Shown here: positions 1 to 12,330 of the stretch, piece by piece | Position numbering within the stretch: position 1 is the stretch's first letter | Layout: each line of letters starts with the position of its first letter | Made by a program: the position numbers and the translations under genes | UHGV virus genome: UHGV-0317858 | Strand: one strand, 5' to 3' | DNA: 12,330 nt | DNA from: a virus | The notes under the pieces: generated by a model | Told to the model about the DNA's origin: nothing | Database searches by the model: none | The model's input: the letters and a program-made list of their open reading frames with translations, nothing else

Positions 1-458
1 GAGTAACCGCGATTATCTCCGCTCTGGTTATCTGCATCGTCGTCTGCCTGTCATGGGGTGTTAATCATTACCGTGATAACGCCATCGCCTACAAAGAACA
101 GCGCGACAAAAATGCCAGAGAACTGAAGCTGGCGAACGCGGCAATTACTGACATGCAGATGCGTCAGCGTGATGTTGCTGCGCTCGATGCAAAATACACG
201 AAGGAGTTAGCTGATGCGAAAGCTGAAAATGATGCTCTGCGTGATGATGTTGCCGCTGGTCGTCGTCGGTTGCGCATCAAAGCAGTCTGTCAGTCAGCGC
301 GTGAAGCCACCGCCACCTCCAGCGTGGATAATGCAGTCTCCCCCAGACTGGCAGACACCGCTGAACGGGATTATTTCACCCTCCGGGAACGACTGGTAAT
401 GATGCAGGCCCAACTTGAAGGTGCTCAGCAATACATAACCGAACAGTGTTTAAAGTAA
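1..458 (+). CDS. rzpR: Rz-type inner-membrane spanin (i-spanin), 5-prime partial; the reading frame is open from position 3 and the start codon lies upstream of the window
   Basis: Frame open from position 3 translates to [77 protein letters not shown]..., near-identical to lambda Rz as I recall it, including the N-terminal transmembrane segment and coiled-coil region. Stop TAA at 456-458. The ORF track lists only the part from the internal ATG at 153. Confidence 0.85.
214..399 (+). CDS. rzoR: Rz1-type outer-membrane lipoprotein spanin (o-spanin), nested entirely inside Rz in the +1 frame
   Basis: 61 aa product [24 protein letters not shown]... with a lipobox (VVVGC) followed by a PPPPP proline-rich stretch, closely matching lambda Rz1. 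The embedded out-of-frame architecture is the classic Rz/Rz1 arrangement. Confidence 0.8.
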
Positions 459-479
459 AATCTTAACTACAATATGATT

Positions 480-577
480 CATTTTGATGATTGTTTCATA
501 AGGAACAGTGAAGTAAGATCTAAGAGGAGTTAAATTTTATACAGTATAATCATAATATTGCAGCAAGGTGGTTATAA
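480..577 (+). promoter_or_regulatory. AT-rich intergenic region upstream of trkG with candidate -10 hexamers (TATAAT at 545-550 and 573-578) and an AGGTGG Shine-Dalgarno-like element at 566-571
   Basis: Perfect TATAAT hexamers are visible, but no convincing TTGACA-like -35 sits at 17 bp spacing, so the promoter assignment is tentative. Confidence 0.25.
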
Positions 578-595
578 TTGAAAGAATATTTAGAT

Positions 596-2053
596 ATGAA
601 TACATCTCATGTAAGAGTTGTTACTCATATGTGTGGGTTCCTGGTTTGGCTCTATAGTCTTTCAATGTTGCCACCAATGGTTGTAGCATTGTTTTATAAA
701 GAAAAAAGCCTGTTCGTTTTCTTTATAACTTTCGTTATATTTTTTTGCATTGGTGGCGGAGCGTGGTATACAACTAAGAAATCTGGCATTCAATTACGTA
801 CCCGTGATGGGTTTATTATAATTGTAATGTTTTGGATTTTGTTTTCTGTTATTAGTGCATTCCCTTTATGGTTTGACTCAGAACTTAATTTAACGTTCAT
901 TGATGCTCTGTTTGAAGGGGTTTCTGGAATAACAACAACAGGAGCAACTGTAATTGATGATGTTAGTTCATTACCTCGGGCATATTTGTACTATCGGTCA
1001 CAGTTAAATTTTATAGGTGGTTTAGGAGTTATTGTTCTGGCGGTTGCAGTATTGCCATTATTGGGTATTGGTGGTGCAAAGCTTTATCAGTCAGAAATGC
1101 CGGGGCCATTTAAGGATGACAAACTCACTCCCCGCCTGGCCGATACGTCACGGACACTGTGGATAACTTATTCTTTATTAGGTATTGCTTGTATTGTCTG
1201 TTATAGACTTGCAGGAATGCCTTTGTTTGATGCTATTTGTCACGGGATTTCCACAGTTTCGCTTGGTGGTTTCTCAACTCATAGCGAGAGTATCGGATAT
1301 TTTAATAACTATTTGGTTGAGCTGGTGGCTGGTTCTTTTTCCCTGCTATCGGCTTTCAACTTCACTCTTTGGTATATTGTTATTAGCAGAAAAACGATAA
1401 AACCTTTAATCAGAGATATTGAACTTCGTTTCTTTCTGTTAATAGCCTTAGGGGTGATCATTGTTACCTCTTTCCAGGTCTGGCATATAGGTATGTATGA
1501 CTTGCATGGAAGTTTTATTCATTCGTTTTTTCTTGCCAGCTCCATGCTCACTGATAATGGTTTAGCTACGCAGGATTATGCAAACTGGCCCACGCACACG
1601 ATAGTGTTTTTGCTGTTGTCAAGTTTCTTTGGGGGATGTATAGGTTCAACCTGTGGTGGAATTAAGTCACTTCGATTTCTTATACTTTTCAAACAAAGCA
1701 AACACGAGATAAATCAGCTTTCTCATCCCAGAGCGTTGTTGAGTGTAAATGTAGGAGGGAAGATAGTTACAGATCGTGTAATGAGGTCTGTATGGAGTTT
1801 CTTTTTTCTTTATACTCTCTTCACGGTGTTTTTTATACTGGTGTTAAATGGTATGGGATATGATTTTCTTACATCATTTGCAACAGTGGCTGCATGTATT
1901 AATAATATGGGATTAGGTTTTGGGGCTACTGCATCGTCATTCGGAGTGCTTAATGACATTGCAAAATATTTAATGTGCATAGCTATGATTCTTGGTCGCC
2001 TTGAAATTTATCCTGTTATTATATTGTTTTCAGGTTTTTTTTGGCGCTCCTAA
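596..2053 (+). CDS. trkG: TrkH/TrkG-family potassium uptake membrane protein (prophage-borne TrkG)
   Basis: The product from ATG 596 (MNTSHVRVVTHMCGFLVWLYSLSMLPP...FSGFFWRS, 485 aa) matches E. coli TrkG as I recall it. It is highly hydrophobic with multiple predicted transmembrane segments and glycine-containing pore-loop-like motifs (GVSGITTTG, GLGVIVLAVAVLPLLGIGG). An alternative TTG start at 578 is better positioned relative to AGGTGG (566-571) and would add 6 residues (MKEYLD). Confidence 0.9.
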   Translation: MNTSHVRVVTHMCGFLVWLYSLSMLPPMVVALFYKEKSLFVFFITFVIFFCIGGGAWYTTKKSGIQLRTRDGFIIIVMFWILFSVISAFPLWFDSELNLTFIDALFEGVSGITTTGATVIDDVSSLPRAYLYYRSQLNFIGGLGVIVLAVAVLPLLGIGGAKLYQSEMPGPFKDDKLTPRLADTSRTLWITYSLLGIACIVCYRLAGMPLFDAICHGISTVSLGGFSTHSESIGYFNNYLVELVAGSFSLLSAFNFTLWYIVISRKTIKPLIRDIELRFFLLIALGVIIVTSFQVWHIGMYDLHGSFIHSFFLASSMLTDNGLATQDYANWPTHTIVFLLLSSFFGGCIGSTCGGIKSLRFLILFKQSKHEINQLSHPRALLSVNVGGKIVTDRVMRSVWSFFFLYTLFTVFFILVLNGMGYDFLTSFATVAACINNMGLGFGATASSFGVLNDIAKYLMCIAMILGRLEIYPVIILFSGFFWRS

Positions 2054-2139
2054 TATATGGCTGATTTATAATTGTGAGTTTAATATTATGTTGACTCACT
2101 CATTGATCCAATACCTAACTTTACCAGCAACACCTCCGC

Positions 2140-2174
2140 CCCCAGTAGCACTGGCTGCTGGGGTGCGTTTTATT
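2140..2174 (+). terminator. Rho-independent terminator downstream of trkG
   Basis: 10-bp stem CCCCAGTAGC (2140-2149) pairing with GCTGCTGGGG (2154-2163) with one G-U wobble, loop ACTG, followed by TGCGTTTTATT. Confidence 0.5.
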
Positions 2175-2190
2175 CATAAAGCAAGGCTGT

Positions 2191-2985
2191 ATGAGCGAGA
2201 AATTAAAGATAGTCTATCGCCCATTACAAGAATTGTCACCGTATGCGCACAACGCCAGGACGCACAGTACTGAGCAGGTGGCACAACTGGTAGAAAGTAT
2301 TAAGCTATTCGGCTGGACTAATCCGGTGCTGATTGACGAAAAGGGCGAAATTATTGCGGGTCACGGTCGTGTTATGGCGGCTGAAATGCTCAAAATGGAT
2401 TCTGTTCCGGTCATTGTTCTGTCTGGCCTGACGGATGAGCAGAAAAAGGCGTACCGCCTGGCAGATAATCGCCTGCCGATGAATGCTGGCTGGGATGAAG
2501 ATCTGTTGCGGATGGAGCTGTCGGACCTAATCAATGCTGATTTTGATGTCTCCCTGACAGGCTTCATCCCGACAGAAATTGATGAACTGTTGACGGATGT
2601 TTTGCCCGGTACAGGAAATGAGGAGGAGCCGTATACGACGAAAATTGATACGCCTGTTTATGAGCCGTCGGGCGGTAAACCGGATATCAGTGAACTGTAC
2701 GACGATACGAAAACTCAGGAGCTGATCAGCCGGATACGTTCGGCGTCCCTTGATCCTGATATTGAGAAATTCCTCCTGTGTGCGGCAGAACGTCACACAG
2801 TGTTTAATTTCAGCAGAATTGCGGACTATTACGCTCATGCCCCCGCTGAAATTCAGTGCCTTTTCGAGGAGTCGGCGCTGGTGATCATTGATTATCAGCA
2901 GGCTATTGAAAATGGATTTGTCCGAATGACGCAGCGCATGGTGGAGATCATGCATGGCGGGGAGGAGGAGGAGGAATATGCGTGA
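2191..2985 (+). CDS. ParB/Srx-like N-terminal domain protein (ParB-like nuclease or DNA-binding fold) with an acidic C-terminal region of unknown function ending in poly-Glu
   Basis: 264 aa. The N-terminal 90 residues (YRPLQELSPYAHNARTHSTEQVAQLVESIKLFGWTNPVLIDEKGEIIAGHGRVMAAEMLKMDSVPVIVL...AYRLADNRL) carry the hallmarks of the ParB N-terminal/sulfiredoxin fold (hydrophobic strand, then G-H-x-R, then AA). The C-terminal region has no motif I recognise. The gene ends ...[11 protein letters not shown] and its stop overlaps the next start. Confidence 0.75.
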   Translation: MSEKLKIVYRPLQELSPYAHNARTHSTEQVAQLVESIKLFGWTNPVLIDEKGEIIAGHGRVMAAEMLKMDSVPVIVLSGLTDEQKKAYRLADNRLPMNAGWDEDLLRMELSDLINADFDVSLTGFIPTEIDELLTDVLPGTGNEEEPYTTKIDTPVYEPSGGKPDISELYDDTKTQELISRIRSASLDPDIEKFLLCAAERHTVFNFSRIADYYAHAPAEIQCLFEESALVIIDYQQAIENGFVRMTQRMVEIMHGGEEEEEYA

Positions 2986-3712
2986 TGATTTTTGCGCCTT
3001 TATTCTGACTCACGGGCGACCGGACAAAGTTCTGACTTACCGGACGTTGCGTCGTGCTGGCTATACCGGGAAAATTTTTATCGTTGTTGATGATGAAGAT
3101 AAGACACGGCATCAGTACATGGCTGAATTTGGTGAACAGGTGCTGGTATTTTCCAAAGCCGATATTGCCAGTCGTTTTGACGAAGCCGATAATTTTGGTG
3201 ATCGCCGCTCAATTTTTTACGCCCGTAATGCCTGTTTCGACCTGGCAAAACTGGTCGGGTGTAAATACTTCATTCAGCTCGATGATGATTATCACGAGTT
3301 CCAGTTTCGGGTGGATCGCAACTATGACCAGGCCTATTTCCCGATAAGGAAACTGGATGCGATCCTTTCTGAAATGCTGGCGTATTACGAATCAATACCC
3401 GCGCTTTCCATCGCTATGTCGCAGGGCGGGGATTTTCTTGGTGACAATGGCGGCCATGCTTCGTGGGTGAAACGCAAGGCAATGAACAGCTTTATCTGTT
3501 CGGTTGATCGACCGTTCTCATTCATGGGGCGCATTAACGAGGATGTGAATACGTACACGAATCTCGGTCGCTGTGGTGAATTGTTTATGACGATCGGTGC
3601 TGTCCAGTTAGGGCAGAAACAGACGCAGAAAAACAGCGGCGGAATGACCGAGCTGTATCTGGATTCCGGAACCTGCCGCCGCGCCCGTTCAATATCCGGA
3701 TGCGCAGGATGA
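2978..3712 (+). CDS. GT-A-fold (family 2-like) glycosyltransferase-like protein, probably C-terminally disrupted at the junction with J-derived DNA
   Basis: From ATG 2978 ([43 protein letters not shown]...[13 protein letters not shown]...) the spacing and composition fit the GT-A signature: N-terminal beta-strand, then hydrophobic-VVDD-x-D at residues 36-41, then a DxD motif (DDD at residues 102-104) about 60 residues later, as in SpsA-type enzymes. The GGAGGAGGAGGAGGAA run just upstream of ATG 2978 serves as the Shine-Dalgarno; the ORF-track start at 2954 lacks one. The last 13 or so codons appear to be J-gene DNA read out of frame. Confidence 0.55.
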
Positions 3713-6639
3713 CGCCGGACAGCACCACAGACCAGCTGCAGAACAAAACGCTCTGGTCGTCATACACCGAAATCATCGATGTGAAACAGTGCTACCCGAA
3801 CACGGCACTGGTCGGCGTACAGGTGGATTCGGAGCAGTTCGGCAGCCAGCAGGTGAGCCGTAATTATCATCTGCGCGGGCGTATTCTGCAGGTGCCGTCG
3901 AACTATAACCCGCAGACTCGGCAATACAGCGGTATCTGGGACGGAACGTTTAAGCCAGCATACAGCAATAACATGGCCTGGTGTCTGTGGGATATGCTGA
4001 CCCATCCACGCTACGGCATGGGGAAACGTCTTGGTGCGGCGGATGTGGACAAATGGGCGCTGTATGTCATCGGCCAGTACTGCGACCAGTCAGTGCCGGA
4101 CGGCTTTGGCGGCACGGAGCCGCGCATCACCTGTAATGCGTACCTGACCACACAGCGCAAGGCGTGGGATGTGCTCAGTGATTTCTGCTCGGCGATGCGC
4201 TGTATGCCGGTATGGAACGGGCAGACGCTGACGTTCGTGCAGGACCGACCGTCGGATAAGGTGTGGACCTATAACCGCAGTAATGTGGTGATGCCGGATG
4301 ATGGCGCGCCGTTCCGCTACAGCTTCAGCGCCCTGAAAGACCGCCATAATGCCGTTGAGGTGAACTGGATTGACCCGAACAACGGCTGGGAGACGGCGAC
4401 AGAGCTTGTTGAAGATACGCAGGCCATTGCCCGTTACGGTCGTAATGTTACGAAGATGGATGCCTTTGGCTGTACCAGCCGGGGGCAGGCACACCGCGCC
4501 GGGCTGTGGCTGATTAAAACGGAGCTGCTGGAGACGCAGACCGTGGATTTCAGCGTCGGCGCAGAAGGGCTTCGCCATGTACCGGGCGATGTTATTGAAA
4601 TCTGCGATGATGACTATGCCGGTATCAGCACCGGTGGTCGTGTGCTGGCGGTGAACAGCCAGACCCGGACGCTGACGCTCGACCGTGAAATCACGCTGCC
4701 ATCCTCCGGTACCACGCTGATAAGCCTGGTTGACGGAAGTGGCAATCCGGTCAGCGTGGAGGTTCAGTCCGTCACCGACGGCGTGAAGGTAAAAGTGAGC
4801 CGTGTTCCTGAGGGTGTTGCTGAATACAGCGTATGGGGGCTGAAGCTGCCGACGCTGCGCCAGCGCCTGTTCCGCTGCGTGAGTATCCGTGAGAACGACG
4901 ACGGCACGTATGCCATCACCGCCGTGCAGCATGTGCCGGAAAAAGAGGCCATCGTGGATAACGGGGCGCACTTTGACGGCGAACAGAGTGGCACGGTGAA
5001 TGGTGTCACGCCGCCAGCGGTGCAGCACCTGACCGCAGAAGTCACTGCAGACAGCGGGGAATATCAGGTGCTGGCGCGATGGGACACACCGAAGGTGGTG
5101 AAGGGCGTGAGCTTTATGCTTCGCCTGACCGTGGCAGCGGACGACGGCAGTGAGCGGCTGGTCAGCACGGCCCGGACGACAGAAACCACATACCGCTTCA
5201 GGCAGCTGGCGCTGGGGAACTACAGGCTGACAGTCCGGGCGGTAAATGCGTGGGGGCAGCAGGGCGATCCGGCATCGGTATCGTTCCGGATTGCCGCACC
5301 TGCAGTGCCGTCGCGGATTGAGCTGACGCCGGGCTATTTTCAGATAACCGCCACGCCGCATCTTGCCGTTTATGACCCGACGGTACAGTTTGAGTTCTGG
5401 TTCTCGGAAAAGCGGATTACCGATATCAGGCAGGTTGAAACCACAGCCCGCTATCTTGGCACGGCGCTGTACTGGATAGCCGCCAGTATCAATATCAAAC
5501 CGGGCCATGATTATTATTTTTACGTTCGCAGTGTGAACACCGTTGGCAAATCGGCATTCGTGGAGGCTGTTGGTCAGCCGAGTGATGATGCATCCGGCTA
5601 TCTGGATTTTTTCAAAGGCGAGATAGGGAAAACCCATCTGGCTCAGGAGCTGTGGACGCAGATTGATAACGGTCAGCTTGCGCCTGACCTGGCTGAAATC
5701 AGGACGTCCATTACGGATGTCAGCAATGAAATCACGCAGACCGTCAATAAGAAACTGGAAGACCAGAGTGCGGCAATTCAGCAGATACAGAAGGTTCAGG
5801 TTGATACAAATAATAACCTGAACAGCATGTGGGCTGTGAAGCTGCAGCAGATGCAGGACGGACGCCTTTATATCGCGGGTATTGGTGCCGGTATTGAGAA
5901 CACCCCTGACGGCATGCAGAGTCAGGTGCTGCTGGCGGCGGACAGGATTGCGATGGTTAATCCTGCGAATGGCAACACAAAACCGATGTTTGTTGGTCAG
6001 GGCGATCAGATATTCATGAACGACGTGTTCCTGAAACGCCTGACGGCCCCCACCATTACCAGCGGTGGAAATCCACCGGCATTTTCCCTGACACCGGACG
6101 GAAAGCTGACTGCTAAAAATGCGGATATCAGTGGCAGTGTGAATGCGAACTCCGGGACGCTCAACAACGTCACGATTAATGAGAACTGTCAGATTAAGGG
6201 GAAACTGTCAGCCAATCAGATTGAAGGCGATATTGTCAAAACAGTGGGTAAGGCTTTCCCGCGGGACTCCCGGGCACCGGAGCGGTGGCCATCAGGGACC
6301 ATTACCGTCAGGATTTATGACGATCAGCCTTTTGACAGGCAAATTGTTATTCCAGCGGTGGCATTCTGCGGCGCTAAACATGAGCGGGAGAATAACGATA
6401 TTTATTCGTCATGCCGCCTGATAGTGAAGAAAAATGGTGCTGAAATTTATAACCGTACCGCGCTGGATAATACGCTGATTTACAGTGGTGTTATTGATAT
6501 GCCAGCTGGTCACGGCCACATGACGCTGGAGTTTTCGGTGTCAGCATGGCTGGTAAATGACTGGTATCCCACAGCAAGTATCAGCGATTTGCTGGTTGTG
6601 GTGATGAAGAAAGCCACCGCAGGCATCAGTATCAGCTGA
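3700..6639 (+). CDS. J: Tail tip attachment / host specificity protein J, N-terminally truncated remnant (C-terminal roughly 980 residues)
   Basis: The translation ([76 protein letters not shown]...) matches lambda gpJ from an internal position as I recall it, including the C-terminal receptor-binding region, which here diverges from lambda. The frame is open only back to a stop at 3577-3579 and no N-terminal J sequence is present. ATG 3700 is an internal Met, so expression as an independent protein is uncertain and the locus may be annotated as a pseudogene. Confidence 0.85.
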
Positions 6640-7370: not shown

Positions 7371-10300
7371 ATGGCAGTACGGATTTCAGGTGTACTGAAA
7401 GATGGCGCAGGTAAGCCGATACAAAACTGCACCATTCAGCTAAAGGCCAGGCGCAACAGCACCACGGTGGTGGTGAACACAGTGGCCTCAGAAAACCCGG
7501 ATGAAGCCGGGCGTTACACAATGGACGTCGAGTATGGTCAGTACAGCGTCAGTCTGTTGGTGGAGGGATTCCCGCCGTCACACGCCGGGATTATCACCGT
7601 ATATGAGGACTCAAAGCCGGGCACACTGAATGATTTCCTCGGTGCAATGACGGAGGATGATGTCCGGCCAGAGGCACTGCGCCGTTTTGAACTGATGGTG
7701 GAAGAGGTGGCGCGTAACGCGTCCGCAGTGGCACAGAACACGGCAGCCGCGAAGAAGTCAGCCGGCGATGCCGGCACATCTGCCCGTGAGGCGGCAACCC
7801 ATGCGACTGATGCTGCAGGCTCAGCACGCGCAGCCAGCACGTCAGCCGGACAGGCCGCTTCGTCGGCTCAGTCAGCGTCTTCCAGCGCAGGAACGGCATC
7901 AGCAAAGGCCACTGAAGCATCAAAAAGTGCTGCCGCTGCAGAGTCCTCAAAAAGCGCGGCGGCCACCAGTGCCGCTGCGGCAAAAACGTCAGAAACGAAT
8001 GCGGCAGCGTCACAACAATCAGCAGCCACTTCAGCATCCACCGCGACCACGAAAGCGTCAGAAGCTGCCACCTCAGCCCGGGATGCGTCGGCTTCAAAAG
8101 AGGCGGCAAAATCATCAGAAACGAGCGCAGCCTCGAGCGCCAGCAGCGCAGCTTCCTCGGCAACGGCGACAGCAAATTCTGCGAAGGCGGCAAAAACGTC
8201 CGAGACGAACGCCAAGGCTTCTGAAACGGCAGCGGGACAGAGTGCCTCAGCTGCGGCAGGCTCAAAAACAGCGGCTGCGTCGTCTGCCAGTGCCGCGTCA
8301 ACAAGTGCCGGGCAGGCCTCAGCCAGTGCCACCGCCGCCGGAAAATCGGCAGAAAGTGCTGCATCGTCCGCTTCAACAGCCACAACGAAGGCTGGCGAAG
8401 CCGCTGTACAGGCCAGCGCAGCAGCGAGGTCTGCTTCCGCAGCGAAGACATCCGAAACGAATGCGAAAGCGTCGGAAACCCGTGCAGAATCCTCAAAAAC
8501 GGCAGCCGCATCGTCCGCCAGTTCGGCAGCGTCATCGGCATCATCTGCGTCTGCTTCAAAAGATGAGGCGACCAGACAGGCGTCAGCAGCGAAGGGCAGC
8601 GCCACGACGGCATCCACGAAAGCAACAGAGGCGGCAGGCAGTGCGACGGCAGCATCTCAGAGCAAAACTGCTGCTGAATCCGCTGCGACCCGTGCGGAAG
8701 CTGCTGCTGATCGTGCTGAAGAGATTGCCGGTGCAGTTGCGATGGAAGACGCAAGCCTTACAACTAAAGGTGTTGTGAAACTTAGCAGTGCTGTTGATAG
8801 CACCAGTGAATCGCTGGCCGCAACGCCAAAAGCAGTTAAAGCAGCCAATGACAATGCGAATAGCAGGGTGCCATCTAACCGAAAAGTTAACGGAAAAGCA
8901 CTGACTGCGGATATAACATTAACGCCGAAAGATATTGGTACTTTAAATTCAGTAACGATGTCTTTCTCTGGCGGGGCTGGGTGGTTCAAACTGGCTACGG
9001 TTACCATGCCACAAGCGAGTTCCATCGTTTACATCGCATTGATTGGTGGCGCTGGTTACAACGTCGGTTCCCCACATCAGGCAGGCATTTCAGAACTGGT
9101 TCTACGAGCAGGCAATGGAAACCCCAAAGGAATTACCGGGGCTTTGTGGAAGCGTACAGCCGTCGGATTAACGAATTTCGCCTGGATCAACACATCCGGC
9201 GATACATATGATATTTACGTTGAGATTGGCAATTATGCGACTCGTGTAAATATCCATTGGGATTGTACTGCAAATGCGACAGTTTCTATTTATACATCGC
9301 CAACATATTCAGCGAGTAAGCCTTCCAGCGTTACCGATGGTGTTGTTTATACGATGTATAGCACACATCAGAAACCGACGCCGTTAGATATTGGAGCACT
9401 GCCAACAACCGGAGGAACAGTTTCAGGTCCGTTGTCTGTTACAGGTGGATTAACTGGTTCATTGAATGGTAATGCAAGTACAGCCACGAAATTGCAGACG
9501 GCAAGATCTATCGGTGGAGTTGTTTTCGACGGTTCTGCAAATATTAACCTTCCAGGTGTAAACACTACGGGTAATCAGAACACCACTGGTAATGCTGCAA
9601 CTGCTACAAAACTTCAGACTGCAAGAAAAATATCCGGTGTTCCATTTGATGGTTCTACTGATATCACTTTAACCGCCGCGCATGTGGCTGCTTTTGCCAG
9701 AAGAGCAACGGATGCGTATGCCGATGCGGATGGGGGCGTTCCATGGAATGCCGAATCAGGCGCTTACAATGTCACCCGCTCTGGCGACAGCTATATTCTG
9801 GTTAACTTCTATACCGGAGTCGGAAGTTGCCGGACCTTGCAGATGAAGGCGCATTACAGAAATGGTGGTCTGTTCTACCGTTCTTCAAGAGACGGTTATG
9901 GTTTTGAAAGTGGTTGGGCGCAGCTTTACACCTCGGCTCATCCTCCTGCAGAGTTTTATCCAGTCGGTGCACCAATCCCGTGGCCATCAGATACCGTTCC
10001 GTCTGGTTATGCCCTGATGCAGGGGCAGACTTTTGACAAATCTGCCTACCCGAAACTTGCTGCCGCTTATCCGTCAGGCGTGATCCCTGATATGCGTGGC
10101 TGGACGATTAAGGGCAAACCTGCCAGTGGTCGTGCCGTATTGTCTCAGGAACAGGACGGCATTAAATCGCACACCCACAGCGCCAGCGCATCCAGTACGG
10201 ATTTGGGGACGAAAACCACATCGTCGTTTGATTACGGCACTAAATCCACGAATAACACCGGGGCGCATACGCACAGTCTGAGTGGCTCTACGGGGTCTGC

Positions 10301-10661
10301 CGGTGCTCATACTCATGGTAATGGTATTCGTTGGCCAGGAGGCGGCGGTTCTGCGTTAGCATTTTATGATGGCGGTGGGTTCACTTATGTCAAGGATTCA
10401 CAGTATCAAGTAAGCCCGGGGACTTCTTCCAGTAGATCGTATTATCAACGTATTCAGACACAGTCAGCAGGTGCTCATACCCACTCGCTGTCTGGTACTG
10501 CAGCAAGTTCTGGCGCACATGCACATACTGTAGGTATTGGTGCGCATACGCACTCGGTTGCGATTGGCTCACATGGACACACCATCACCGTTAACGCTGC
10601 TGGTAACGCGGAAAACACCGTCAAAAACATCGCATTTAACTATATTGTGAGGCTTGCATAA
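7371..10661 (+). CDS. stfR: Side tail fibre protein (lambda Stf-like N-terminus, Ala/Ser-rich quasi-repeat shaft, His-rich C-terminal receptor-binding domain)
   Basis: 1096 aa. The N-terminus ([49 protein letters not shown]...) matches lambda/Rac Stf. A long low-complexity A/S/T/K/E region follows. The C-terminal part carries a duplicated ATKLQTAR...FDGS motif and multiple H-x-H motifs (GAHTHS). The stop TAA overlaps the tfa start (TAATG). Confidence 0.9.
7700..8760 (+). repeat. Imperfect tandem coding repeats specifying the Ala/Ser-rich fibrous shaft of Stf
   Basis: Recurring peptide units such as [24 protein letters not shown] and [26 protein letters not shown] appear several times. The region is stop-free in several frames on both strands, which produces the spurious ORFs at 7768-8778 (+), 7594-8754 (-) and 7868-8617 (-). 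Confidence 0.6.
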
Positions 10662-11245
10662 TGACATTCAGAATGAGTGAACAACCACGGACCATAAAAA
10701 TTTATAATCTGCTGGCCGGAACTAATGAATTTATTGGTGAAGGTGACGCATATATTCCGCCTCATACAGGTCTGCCTGCAAACAGTACCGATATTGCACC
10801 GCCAGATATTCCGGCAGGCTTCGTGGCTGTTTTCAACAGTGATGAGGCATCGTGGCATCTCGTTGAAGACCATCGTGGTAAAACGGTCTATGACGTGGCT
10901 TCCGGCGACGCGTTATTTATTTCTGAACTCGGCTCATTACCGGAAAATGTCACCTGGTTATCCCCGGAAGGGGAGTTTCAGAAGTGGAACGGTACAGTCT
11001 GGGTGAAGGATACGGAAGCAGAAAAACTGTTCCGGATCCGGGAGGCGGAAGAAACAAAAAACAGCCTGATGCAGGTAGCCAGTGAGCATATAGCGCCGCT
11101 TCAGGATGCTGTAGATCTGGAGATCGCAACGGAAGAAGAGGCGTCGTTGCTGGAAGCCTGGAAGAAGTATCGGGTATTGCTGAACCGTGTTGATACATCA
11201 ACTGCACCTGATATTGAGTGGCCTGCAAATCCTGTCAGGGAGTAA
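10661..11245 (+). CDS. tfaR: Tail fibre assembly protein (Tfa chaperone)
   Basis: 194 aa ([54 protein letters not shown]...[19 protein letters not shown]), near-identical to lambda Tfa as I recall it. The start overlaps the stf stop. Confidence 0.9.
11081..11200 (+). repeat. Direct repeat copy 1 (the 3-prime end of tfa), about 87% identical to 12130-12249
   Basis: Hand alignment of the two 120-nt segments gives about 15 mismatches with no gaps. Both encode [19 protein letters not shown][20 protein letters not shown]. Confidence 0.7.
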
Positions 11246-11258
11246 TCATTGGGATTAT

Positions 11259-11293
11259 GCCGCAGCACGTCGTGCGCAAGAACGTGCTGCGGC
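11259..11293. terminator. Perfect 11-bp inverted repeat hairpin between the convergent tfa and methyltransferase genes; candidate bidirectional terminator
   Basis: GCCGCAGCACG (11259-11269) and CGTGCTGCGGC (11283-11293) are exact reverse complements with a 13-nt loop, and a T-run follows at 11303-11308. The T-run also overlaps the minus-strand gene end, so terminator function is plausible but not certain. Confidence 0.45.
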
Positions 11294-11299
11294 TGGATG

Positions 11300-11968
11300 C
11301 TATTTTTTCCCTGAAGCGGAAAACATTACTACAGTACCTTTAATCTTGGTTTTAACATTCTCGAAATGCTCTGAGAGTATATGTGTTAAGCCTTCTTCGG
11401 AATCTTTTGTGTTTGAAAAGATGCCTTTTTGATTGTAAATGCGCATCAGTTTTTGACCGAAGCTATTGTGCACAACGCCGTCACCAAGAATTGTGGCTCC
11501 GTATAGAGTTCCATCGTCAGTTAAGGCCTGCGCCGCATTGCGTATTACACAGCTTTTTGTAGATATATTTCCAGGCAGGCAGTGAAGAAGGTAAAACATG
11601 GAAATGGAATCAAATTGACCATGTAACGCCGCGGGATAAGGTTCAAAAACATCATGGCTAATTTTATGTTTAATTTTTGATTCCCCAGCCCTTGTAGATG
11701 CCGCGTTCAGGCTAGTTTCGTTCAAATCCATTAAAGATATCAGACTACTCTCAGGTACGTGAGTAAGGTAAAACCCAGTTCCAACACCAATATCCAGATG
11801 GTTGTTACCTAAATGTTCCAGAAAGTGTGGAAGGAGGTGTTCCTTTGTAGGACATCCCCATGCAAGCCGATTTGATACTCCCAAAACCCACCAGTCATAA
11901 AGCTTTAGGGTAAGTGGTGTGTAAATTTTAGCCCCATCATCTGTGTTTTTTTTCATTAATTTCACCAT
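11300..11968 (-). CDS. Class I (Rossmann-fold) SAM-dependent methyltransferase of unknown substrate; AT-rich cargo gene
   Basis: 222 aa with a canonical motif I (HLDIGVGTGFY), an acidic residue closing beta-2 (LISLMDLNE), a motif II-like segment (FDSISMFYLLHCL) and a motif III-like segment (LTDDGTLYGATI). No DPPY/NPPY or other DNA-methyltransferase target-recognition motifs. Visibly AT-rich relative to the neighbouring tail genes, with a weak RBS. Confidence 0.6.
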   Translation of the reverse strand: MVKLMKKNTDDGAKIYTPLTLKLYDWWVLGVSNRLAWGCPTKEHLLPHFLEHLGNNHLDIGVGTGFYLTHVPESSLISLMDLNETSLNAASTRAGESKIKHKISHDVFEPYPAALHGQFDSISMFYLLHCLPGNISTKSCVIRNAAQALTDDGTLYGATILGDGVVHNSFGQKLMRIYNQKGIFSNTKDSEEGLTHILSEHFENVKTKIKGTVVMFSASGKK

Positions 11969-12024
11969 GTTATAGTTTTATTTGTGAATTAAATCAATTA
12001 TGGCGATGAATTACAAGGGGTTAA

Positions 12025-12330
12025 ATGCTGCCGCAGCATAGCGATATTGAAATAGCCTGGTATGCTTCGATACAGCAGGAGCCGAATGGCTGGAAGACCG
12101 TCATCATACAGTTCTACATCCAGGAGTTCAGTGAGTATATTGCGCCACTGCAGGATGCTGTAGATCTGGAAATCGCAACGGAGGAAGAAAGATCGTTGCT
12201 GGAGGCATGGAATAAATATCGGGTATTGCTGAATCGTGTTGATACATCAGTAGCTCTGGGTATGAAGCTGATTGTAACTCATGTTACAGTAACGGTCATT
12301 GCTATCTCGAAGGTGCAAAATGTATATTGA
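12025..12330 (+). pseudogene. Chimeric ORF carrying a Tfa C-terminal domain signature (probable tail fibre assembly gene remnant)
   Basis: 101 aa. The central segment ([38 protein letters not shown]) is a Tfa C-terminal domain, but the N-terminal 35 residues and the last 26 residues ([26 protein letters not shown]) do not resemble Tfa. The stop coincides with the window end, so downstream context cannot be seen. Confidence 0.4.
12130..12249 (+). repeat. Direct repeat copy 2 (tfa 3-prime end homologue inside a chimeric ORF)
   Basis: See copy 1; same orientation, about 1.05 kb downstream. Confidence 0.7.

Follow-up and report, generated by a model that had tools for sequence, protein, structure and literature searches.

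Morons of lambdoid phages, a concept drawn from HK97/HK022 comparisons, are extra, independently transcribed genes that lie between conserved neighbors. Two other arrangements are described directly after the tail fiber genes stf and tfa: the Pin/Gin/Cin segments (Rac pinR, e14 pinE, Mu gin and P1 cin) and the HK225/N15-type cluster, in which tfa faces a convergent dinI, and a LexA box separates dinI from the divergent gp28 gene, itself followed by an invertase or umuD-like gene. Closest to the case treated here is the DLP12 prophage of Escherichia coli K-12 MG1655, with the gene order tfaD (b0561), ybcY (b0562, a pseudogene), tfaX (b0563), appY and ompT. In this work we analyze the segment that follows tfa in UHGV virus genome UHGV-0317858, that is, positions 11246-12330 of a stretch of 12,330 nucleotides, hereafter the window, to which all coordinates refer and whose overall guanine-plus-cytosine (GC) content is 50.1%. 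A first-pass annotation had seen in this segment the capture of a methyltransferase cassette, yet the region is the tfaD-ybcY-tfaX arrangement already annotated in DLP12, a case of ordinary prophage mosaicism and no new element.

DLP12 and the window are 95% identical across 10807-12254 and have in common the three genes, their order and orientation, and the AT-rich divergent spacer with its promoter hexamers. They differ in that K-12 ybcY is frameshifted and K-12 tfaX carries a premature TGA and a proper tfa-type tail, whereas ybcY is intact in the window; moreover, appY lies downstream in K-12 and an alpha/beta hydrolase gene here, where the host element is a Rac-site prophage. A 1731-nucleotide region is 99.8% identical to the Rac-site prophage of E. 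coli strain 789, in which the alpha/beta hydrolase gene and ompT come after tfaX, with the chromosomal genes uspF and ompN beyond them, and phage PhiR29_1 has its methyltransferase annotated as YbcY-like. A survey of 5426 complete E. coli genomes found ybcY (at no less than 95% identity) in 3832, the junction of the tfa 3' end with ybcY in 3066, the ybcY-tfaX junction in 3437 (about 90% of ybcY-bearing genomes) and the whole 1731-nucleotide arrangement in 1494. Uniform conservation of the arrangement was what the first-pass annotation had set against its own capture scenario; conservation comes close to that, as the figure for the ybcY-tfaX junction indicates, yet the site varies between phages. 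In several K-12 derivatives a RefSeq 'nucleocapsid protein' feature overlaps the ybcY pseudogene, probably as an annotation artefact.

Our reading of the locus, to which we assign a probability of roughly 0.8, is that ybcY and tfaX form an accessory (b-region-like) segment of the right arm of lambdoid prophages, in which ybcY would be a moron-like gene, tfaX a dead fusion and the direct repeat shared by tfa and tfaX a passive feature. The elements involved are as follows.

10661-11245, plus strand: tfa, lambda-type tail fiber assembly gene, intact, 194 amino acids (Caudo_TAP PF02413, E 5.5e-45)
11081-11200, plus strand: repeat copy 1, the conserved tfa 3' core, codons about 141-180 (repeat family D1)
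11259-11293, no strand assigned: GC-rich hairpin at the end of the lambda-type tfa module (RNA fold, end of lambda homology)
about 11288-12111, no strand assigned: transferable unit, comprising ybcY, its upstream region and some 29 codons from the 5' end of a divergent phrog_3893 gene (Citrobacter, Ayreon)
11300-11968, minus strand: ybcY, predicted class I S-adenosylmethionine (SAM)-dependent methyltransferase, open reading frame (ORF) of 222 amino acids (Pfam, phrog_2132)
11969-12024, no strand assigned: divergent promoter spacer between ybcY and the tfaX-type ORF, 26.8% GC (composition, promoter-like sites)
12025-12330, plus strand: tfaX-type ORF, 101 amino acids (phrog_2341, a family of unknown function, E 5e-54)
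12025-12111, plus strand: 5' fragment of a phrog_3893 gene, about 29 codons (intact homologue divergent from ybcY in Citrobacter)
12130-12249, plus strand: repeat copy 2, 3' core of a tfa allele belonging to a different phage lineage (87.5% identical to copy 1)
12250-12330, plus strand: diverged tfa tail, original stop lost (window/Turner/2G7b type only)

The direct repeat and the tfaX-type reading frame

The direct repeat of the tfa 3' end reported by the first-pass annotation is reproduced both in its position and in its mismatch count. A repeat search of the window pairs 11069-11235 with 12118-12284 (78% identity over 167 nucleotides) and, in register at an offset of 1049, 11081-11200 differs from 12130-12249 at 15 of 120 positions; the pair has a blastn E-value of 1e-38 and is therefore far beyond chance. 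Copy 1 belongs to an intact tfa gene (48.9% GC, 93% nucleotide identity to tfa/orf-194 of phage lambda) and falls within a match to the Rfam family IS009 (RF02111) at 11004-11202, with 221.7 bits. This family is filed as a small RNA gene. Its matches to tfa, tfaD and tfaR score 220-228 bits and fall on coding sequence in the 3' part of these genes (L006, 7857-8055, and L022, 11755-11953, besides the window match), while the match on the tfaX copy (12048-12251) reaches 107.7 bits, under the gathering score of 117; RF02111 would thus seem to represent a conserved stretch of protein-coding sequence and not a separate RNA.

That the two copies share orientation and reading frame might suggest that tfa was duplicated locally in tandem within a single phage, and that ybcY then entered the second copy, which decayed. 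Against this, two thirds of the differences behind the core divergence of 12.5% are synonymous, and of the 40 codons 13 differ, 10 synonymously and 3 non-synonymously. Both copies must therefore have evolved separately, and for long, under selection as functional tfa genes, and a recent local duplication is excluded. The copy-2 core, moreover, is about equally distant (88-92% identity) from every intact tfa examined, the neighboring tfa included, no intact tfa in the phage collection qualifies as its donor at more than 91% identity, and the 5' part of the second ORF corresponds to phrog_3893 rather than to tfa. On these grounds an origin by tandem duplication appears very improbable.

The ORF that contains copy 2 is a composite, in agreement with an earlier suggestion that a second, chimeric tfa-like frame lies downstream of the methyltransferase gene. 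Its match to Caudo_TAP is limited to profile positions 76-121 of 131 and does not cover the domain at full length, the N-terminal part being phrog_3893: residues 3-37 match that family (E 6e-5) and residues 31-77 match tail-fiber-assembly PHROGs. At the DNA level the window is near-identical to a Citrobacter locus and to phage Ayreon up to 12111 and diverges thereafter; a junction zone of 17 nucleotides follows (12112-12128), in which nothing but a short AT(N)CAGG patch is common to both parents, and the tfa core then starts. The ORF is therefore a phrog_3893::tfa fusion created by a non-homologous join, which was possibly assisted by microhomology; its tfa part amounts to the final ~70 codons of the gene in another phage. 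Beyond the core, 13 of 15 codons of the window-type tail are non-synonymous with respect to tfa, and the tfaX tails of K-12 and STS73-1-E are different, proper tfa C-termini.

It could still be argued that tfaX encodes a functional short protein, e.g. a decoy or dominant-negative chaperone fragment directed at the tail fibers of superinfecting phages, and that the repeat has been kept for this reason. The ORF is open over its 101 codons in the window, has a PHROG family of its own (phrog_2341), retains the most conserved segment of Tfa and faces, in K-12, the side of the spacer on which RpoD binding has been reported (PMC3946193). Nevertheless, it has been broken independently by an in-frame TGA in K-12 and by a 7-nucleotide deletion in 2G7b, its C-terminal tails vary, and it is classed as a pseudogene by PGAP and as a partial tfa pseudogene in RefSeq. 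The predicted -10 element, furthermore, overlaps its ATG, and the region that holds the LexA box and Shine-Dalgarno sequence in intact phrog_3893 genes is gone. A search of TfaX against the PADLOC models gave no match. We see little chance of a functional TfaX and consider the ORF, as judged from its sequence, to be a chimeric and probably non-functional relic.

The source of its first codons can be traced to the HK225/N15-type cluster. Full-length phrog_3893 genes (79-99 amino acids) occur in Klebsiella phage Kp4882-3, in HK225 (gp28) and in the Citrobacter locus, with dinI as the divergent neighbor and a umuD-like or invertase gene on the downstream side (L018, 2467-2486; L019, 2458-2477; L020, 5699-5941). 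A canonical LexA box (TACTGTATATA-A/C-A-A/T-ACAGT) immediately precedes the gene in Kp4882-3 and HK225, and phrog_3893 looks like an uncharacterized SOS-induced phage gene. In the window ybcY takes the dinI side of this divergent pair, whereas dinI itself is missing, no LexA box precedes the tfaX-type ORF within 11900-12100, and only about 29 codons of phrog_3893 remain, fused to tfa. A related annotation deserves mention at this point. RefSeq lists, between ybcY and tfaX of strain STS73-1-E (L016, 3644-3723), a 'DinI family' pseudogene on the minus strand, for which tblastn with two DinI sequences returned nothing significant and Pfam returned nothing; an antisense similarity to the 'DinI' coding sequence of phage Eeyore is weak and falls on an unsupported N-terminal extension, the DinI domain itself spanning residues 89-149. 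The RefSeq call probably stems from over-extended DinI annotations, and sequence comparison identifies the putative pseudogene segment as the plus-strand 5' end of phrog_3893 instead.

The ybcY gene and its predicted product

The description of ybcY as a minus-strand, compositionally foreign gene for a class I SAM methyltransferase, already made by the first-pass annotation, holds well. Annotations of the gene in phages and RefSeq read YbcY-like or class I SAM methyltransferase. Its GC content is 40.5% (36% at third codon positions), compared with the 48.9% of tfa and the 50.1% of the window, and its product passes four Pfam thresholds: Methyltransf_12 (36.6 bits, cutoff 30), Methyltransf_23 (27.8, cutoff 27), Methyltransf_25 (27.3, cutoff 27) and Methyltransf_11 (24.7, cutoff 21.2). 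The real start of the gene is probably the ATG at 11956, giving 218 amino acids, because a GGTGA Shine-Dalgarno-like sequence precedes it, the corresponding methionine (M5) is invariant and the alignment with phrog_2132, a family of unknown function matched with an E-value of 3e-155, begins at residue 5. Motif I reads LDIGVGTG, and residues D59, G61, G63, T64, G65 and D81 are invariant among 35 homologues, as is an N-terminal YDWWVL motif specific to the YbcY family. The AlphaFold (AF2) model shows a seven-stranded Rossmann fold at a mean confidence score (pLDDT) of 89.6. By predicted fold, by motif and by profile YbcY is thus a class I enzyme, for which SAM binding and methyl transfer are predicted.

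Orphan DNA methylases are common in phages and YbcY is a SAM-dependent methyltransferase, and one might therefore envisage a DNA methyltransferase that shields phage or host DNA from restriction. This idea is scarcely tenable. The 222-residue sequence contains neither a (D/N/S)PP(Y/F/W) nor a PC/ENV motif and matches no DNA methyltransferase family of Pfam or NCBIfam, and there is no DNA methylase among the top structural neighbors of the model. Foldseek instead places it close to a bacterial phosphatidylethanolamine (PE) N-methyltransferase (8ys9), to JHAMT, to SgvM and to phosphoethanolamine methyltransferases, and sequence identity to enzymes of this class (8ys9; JHAMT, 7ec0; UbiG, 4kdc; DhpI, 3ou2; MM_2633, 3dtn) ranges from 12 to 21%. 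The modeled fold is that of a small-molecule/lipid methyltransferase rather than that of a DNA methylase, and in the lysogen YbcY would accordingly methylate some small molecule or lipid, of either host or phage origin. Searches of PDB sequences and NCBIfam yielded weak generic matches only, the NCBIfam ones far under their cutoffs, and the PADLOC defense models gave mad2 alone (E 0.003, 14 bits), which is not meaningful. A literature search found no functional study of ybcY or tfaX; deletion of ybcY has been reported to be without effect on Hha toxicity (PMC2408971).

Whatever its substrate, ybcY shows dN/dS ratios (non-synonymous to synonymous substitution rates) of 0.11-0.23 against chromosomal, Citrobacter and phage copies, and the gene is therefore maintained by purifying selection. 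More than 2000 homologues were found. Members of this set with 55-69% identity stand alone, as single genes in non-phage chromosomal contexts of Enterobacter, Salmonella and Yersinia, and the Enterobacter copy has a GC content of 39% in surroundings of about 50-54%. By blastn the DNA homology with Enterobacter extends over 11329-12018, and by tblastx over 11300-12040, which takes in the gene and about 50-70 bp upstream. Many of these traits are those of a moron: ybcY is a single gene of deviating GC content, oriented opposite to the late operon and preceded by a predicted promoter region of its own, it has relatives in bacterial chromosomes, and it is absent from the otherwise homologous lambda, ev099, HK225 and K-12 Rac. 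Unlike a typical moron, on the other hand, it is embedded in a larger conserved block (ybcY-tfaX-hydrolase-ompT) and does not lie between two essential phage genes.

Candidate signals for its expression can be recognized on both sides. In the upstream spacer, a promoter-like site (TTAACC-16-CATAAT) is predicted on the minus strand at 12024-11997, and the K-12 hexamers TTGATT-17-TATAAC are conserved in the window at 11997-11969. Genomic SELEX (systematic evolution of ligands by exponential enrichment) in K-12 has located RpoD promoters in both directions, together with H-NS binding, between ybcY and tfaX (PMC3946193). It is thus probable, on the evidence of these elements, that ybcY is transcribed from its own AT-rich promoter region, and it would constitute an independently transcribed, H-NS-modulated accessory enzyme gene facing against the late operon. 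At the other end, a GC-rich hairpin (11259-11293) folds with -30.1 kcal/mol on the plus strand and -27.7 kcal/mol on the minus strand (z-scores of -3.5 and -4.3, respectively) and probably stops transcription between tfa and ybcY, which converge on it, although a simple terminator scan did not call it. Rfam and tRNA scans of 11246-12330 gave nothing at gathering thresholds.

The travelling unit and its proposed history

The site after tfa is variable, as expected of the accessory cargo hotspot that had been proposed for it. At the same chromosomal locus K-12 Rac carries stfR-tfaR-pinR-ynaE, with pinR exactly where this Rac variant has ybcY, which bears out the suggestion that ybcY occupies an invertase position; HK225 has tfa-dinI-gp28-invertase, and lambda and ev099 have neither ybcY nor an invertase after tfa. 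The gene is present in PhiR29_1, 2G7b, ev243 and Turner. In Turner the order is stf, tfa, invertase, about 1 kb of further sequence, ybcY, tfaX, hydrolase, ompT and int, and in 2G7b a different fiber module is joined at window position 11126 to the ybcY-tfaX-hydrolase-ompT-int block. Hence, ybcY-tfaX moves as part of the right-arm block, independently of any particular tfa.

The likeness to the Pin/Gin/Cin segments extends beyond the position directly after stf-tfa to the presence of a second tfa-derived fragment, which is common in both. The repeats of the window, however, are direct, with the second fragment in the same orientation, and no recombinase gene is present, and an inversion switch is therefore not possible. 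The only inverted repeat pair in the window measures 24 nucleotides at 75% identity, and its ORF list contains no resolvase-sized frame after tfa. In Turner, which has both an invertase and ybcY-tfaX, the invertase gene stands apart from the block, on its upstream side. Within 11246-12330 there are also no transposase or integrase ORFs and no flanking inverted repeats; the diverged 120-nucleotide repeat is not a target-site duplication, and by these sequence features the segment is not a transposon, an insertion sequence or an integron cassette.

The extent of the unit that moves is best seen in Citrobacter freundii, whose locus L020 shares 11288-12111 with the window at 91.5% over 825 nucleotides and encodes a YbcY 89% identical to the one described here. 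It is flanked by dinI (Pfam E 5e-21) on one side and by an intact phrog_3893 gene of 80 amino acids and a umuD-like ORF on the other, with no tfa sequence on either side, and the repeats can thus not be upheld as the bounds of a captured cassette. The homology to phage Ayreon also stops at 12111. Of the cassette originally delimited as 11246-12330, the foreign methyltransferase part stands, whereas the first 54 nucleotides (11246-11299) belong to the lambda-type tfa module, with lambda homology reaching 11292 and including the hairpin.

These comparisons bear directly on the proposal that the methyltransferase cassette was captured through homologous exchange between the tfa genes of two phages, with the repeats as boundaries of a mobile cassette. 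Breakpoints do lie in or at tfa cores, as shown by the left junction of 2G7b (11126) and the end of K-12 homology (12254), and tfaX tails differ by lineage, so homologous recombination in the cores does move flanks. Yet the Citrobacter unit has no tfa on either side, equal homologous exchange cannot generate a duplication, and at the right junction a phrog_3893 fragment is joined to mid-tfa in a non-homologous, out-of-register fashion. Nor is there any sign that the repeats serve for excision: a query for the predicted product (tfa 5' part, core and window-type tail, at least 80% covered) was found in none of the 5426 genomes, K-12-type tails being invisible to this query. The sole loss of ybcY seen, in Ayreon (L015, 3239-3587), is a clean internal deletion of 663 bp from 11336 to about 11998 that keeps both flanks. 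Its junction runs from a tfa 3' fragment through the hairpin and the last 36 nucleotides of ybcY to the ybcY upstream region and a phrog_3893 pseudogene, and the retention of those 36 nucleotides shows that the repeats were not used. The side tail fiber of Ayreon is of a different type. Two further candidates for repeat-mediated tfa::tfaX deletions, ev099 and PhiR42_1, each gave two joined BLAST pieces and turned out to hold an ordinary tfa matching both copies. We therefore regard capture by tfa-tfa exchange as unlikely. What remains of it is the recombination scar itself, which the first-pass annotation had rightly sensed and which lies at the phrog_3893/tfa junction within 12112-12128.

The accessory-segment reading that we favor can be cast as a series of steps. 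The starting point would be the arrangement of HK225, with tfa and dinI convergent and a LexA box ahead of a divergent phrog_3893. A chromosomal methyltransferase gene would then have been inserted, with its own upstream DNA, between dinI and phrog_3893, giving the state seen in Citrobacter, and a subsequent loss of dinI would have placed tfa and its hairpin against ybcY. Finally, an illegitimate, out-of-register join may have linked codon ~29 of phrog_3893 to codon ~150 of the tfa of another phage, bringing in the right arm of that phage (the 3' part of tfa, hydrolase, ompT and int) and leaving the 120-nucleotide direct repeat as a passive by-product. Later homologous exchange in the conserved tfa cores would reshuffle left and right flanks, and such exchanges account for the breakpoints of 2G7b and K-12 and for the heterogeneous tfaX tails.

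Several observations weigh against this reading. The order of the steps derives from a handful of extant arrangements rather than from a phylogeny, and the Citrobacter arrangement could be derived and not ancestral. The strong conservation of tfaX could mean either hitch-hiking or an unrecognized function. The case for a ybcY promoter is based on in vitro SELEX and hexamer prediction in K-12, whose ybcY is a pseudogene, and the hairpin, lacking a U-tract on the minus strand, would be no more than a candidate terminator for ybcY.

Prophage context and biological meaning

The left part of the window (153-3712) is a defective Rac-type prophage, and tail genes come after it. Window positions 14-2444 are 99% identical to the rzpR-trkG-ynaK region of K-12 Rac, and this part holds Rz (153-458) and trkG, a low-GC gene for a K+ transporter (578-2053; TrkH E 1e-144, 37.7% GC). 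Next come genes for a protein with a ParB_N domain (2191-2985) and for a TET-associated glycosyltransferase (TAGT, PF20691, E 6e-35; 2954-3712), a pair represented in K-12 by the short fragments ynaK and ydaY. The TAGT ORF runs straight into the tail tip gene J (3670-6639), which is truncated at its 5' end and retains the last 27 residues of its FNIII-A domain. There are no head or tail-shaft genes between Rz and J, and the prophage therefore cannot make virions. Further along lies the side tail fiber gene:

7371-10661, plus strand: stf (window ORF list)

Between 7750 and 8750, stf contains a long Ala/Ser/Thr-rich low-complexity region of about 60-63% GC with a strong A-over-T skew, and near the C-terminus of its product (10260-10553) repeated GAHTHS-type His motifs correspond to the short direct DNA repeats D2 and D3 (GGTGCGCATACGCAC). 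Just past the end of the window, in locus L001 (10914-12398), lies the gene for the 494-residue alpha/beta hydrolase (Abhydrolase_1 with a TAP-like C-terminus) that is linked to ybcY-tfaX and ompT; it matches the PADLOC model PDLC01094 (C3a206, 'TAP-like protein') with an E-value of 9e-55.

The genes at the center of this analysis have already been named in K-12 (ybcY, tfaX), carry RefSeq annotations in thousands of genomes and belong to PHROG families of their own. What is gained here is an explanation of 'TfaX', which is a phrog_3893::tfa fusion, probably a relic, and not a truncated duplicate. More generally, the conserved 3' core of tfa, which is also the Rfam family 'IS009', appears to act as a shared recombination linker in the mosaicism of lambdoid phages. 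A bolder proposition is that YbcY is a lysogenic-conversion enzyme, a small-molecule or lipid methyltransferase recruited from an enterobacterial chromosome, preserved intact through selection in about 70% of E. coli and modifying an envelope lipid of the host, a quinone or another metabolite. We hold this proposition to be doubtful, if not quite implausible; were it true, the linked hydrolase and OmpT might join YbcY in altering the cell envelope, with effects on phage susceptibility or resistance to antimicrobial peptides. Few accessory genes of E. coli prophages are as widespread as ybcY, which encodes an intact and selected predicted methyltransferase, and it thus presents itself as a target for knockout and metabolomics studies.

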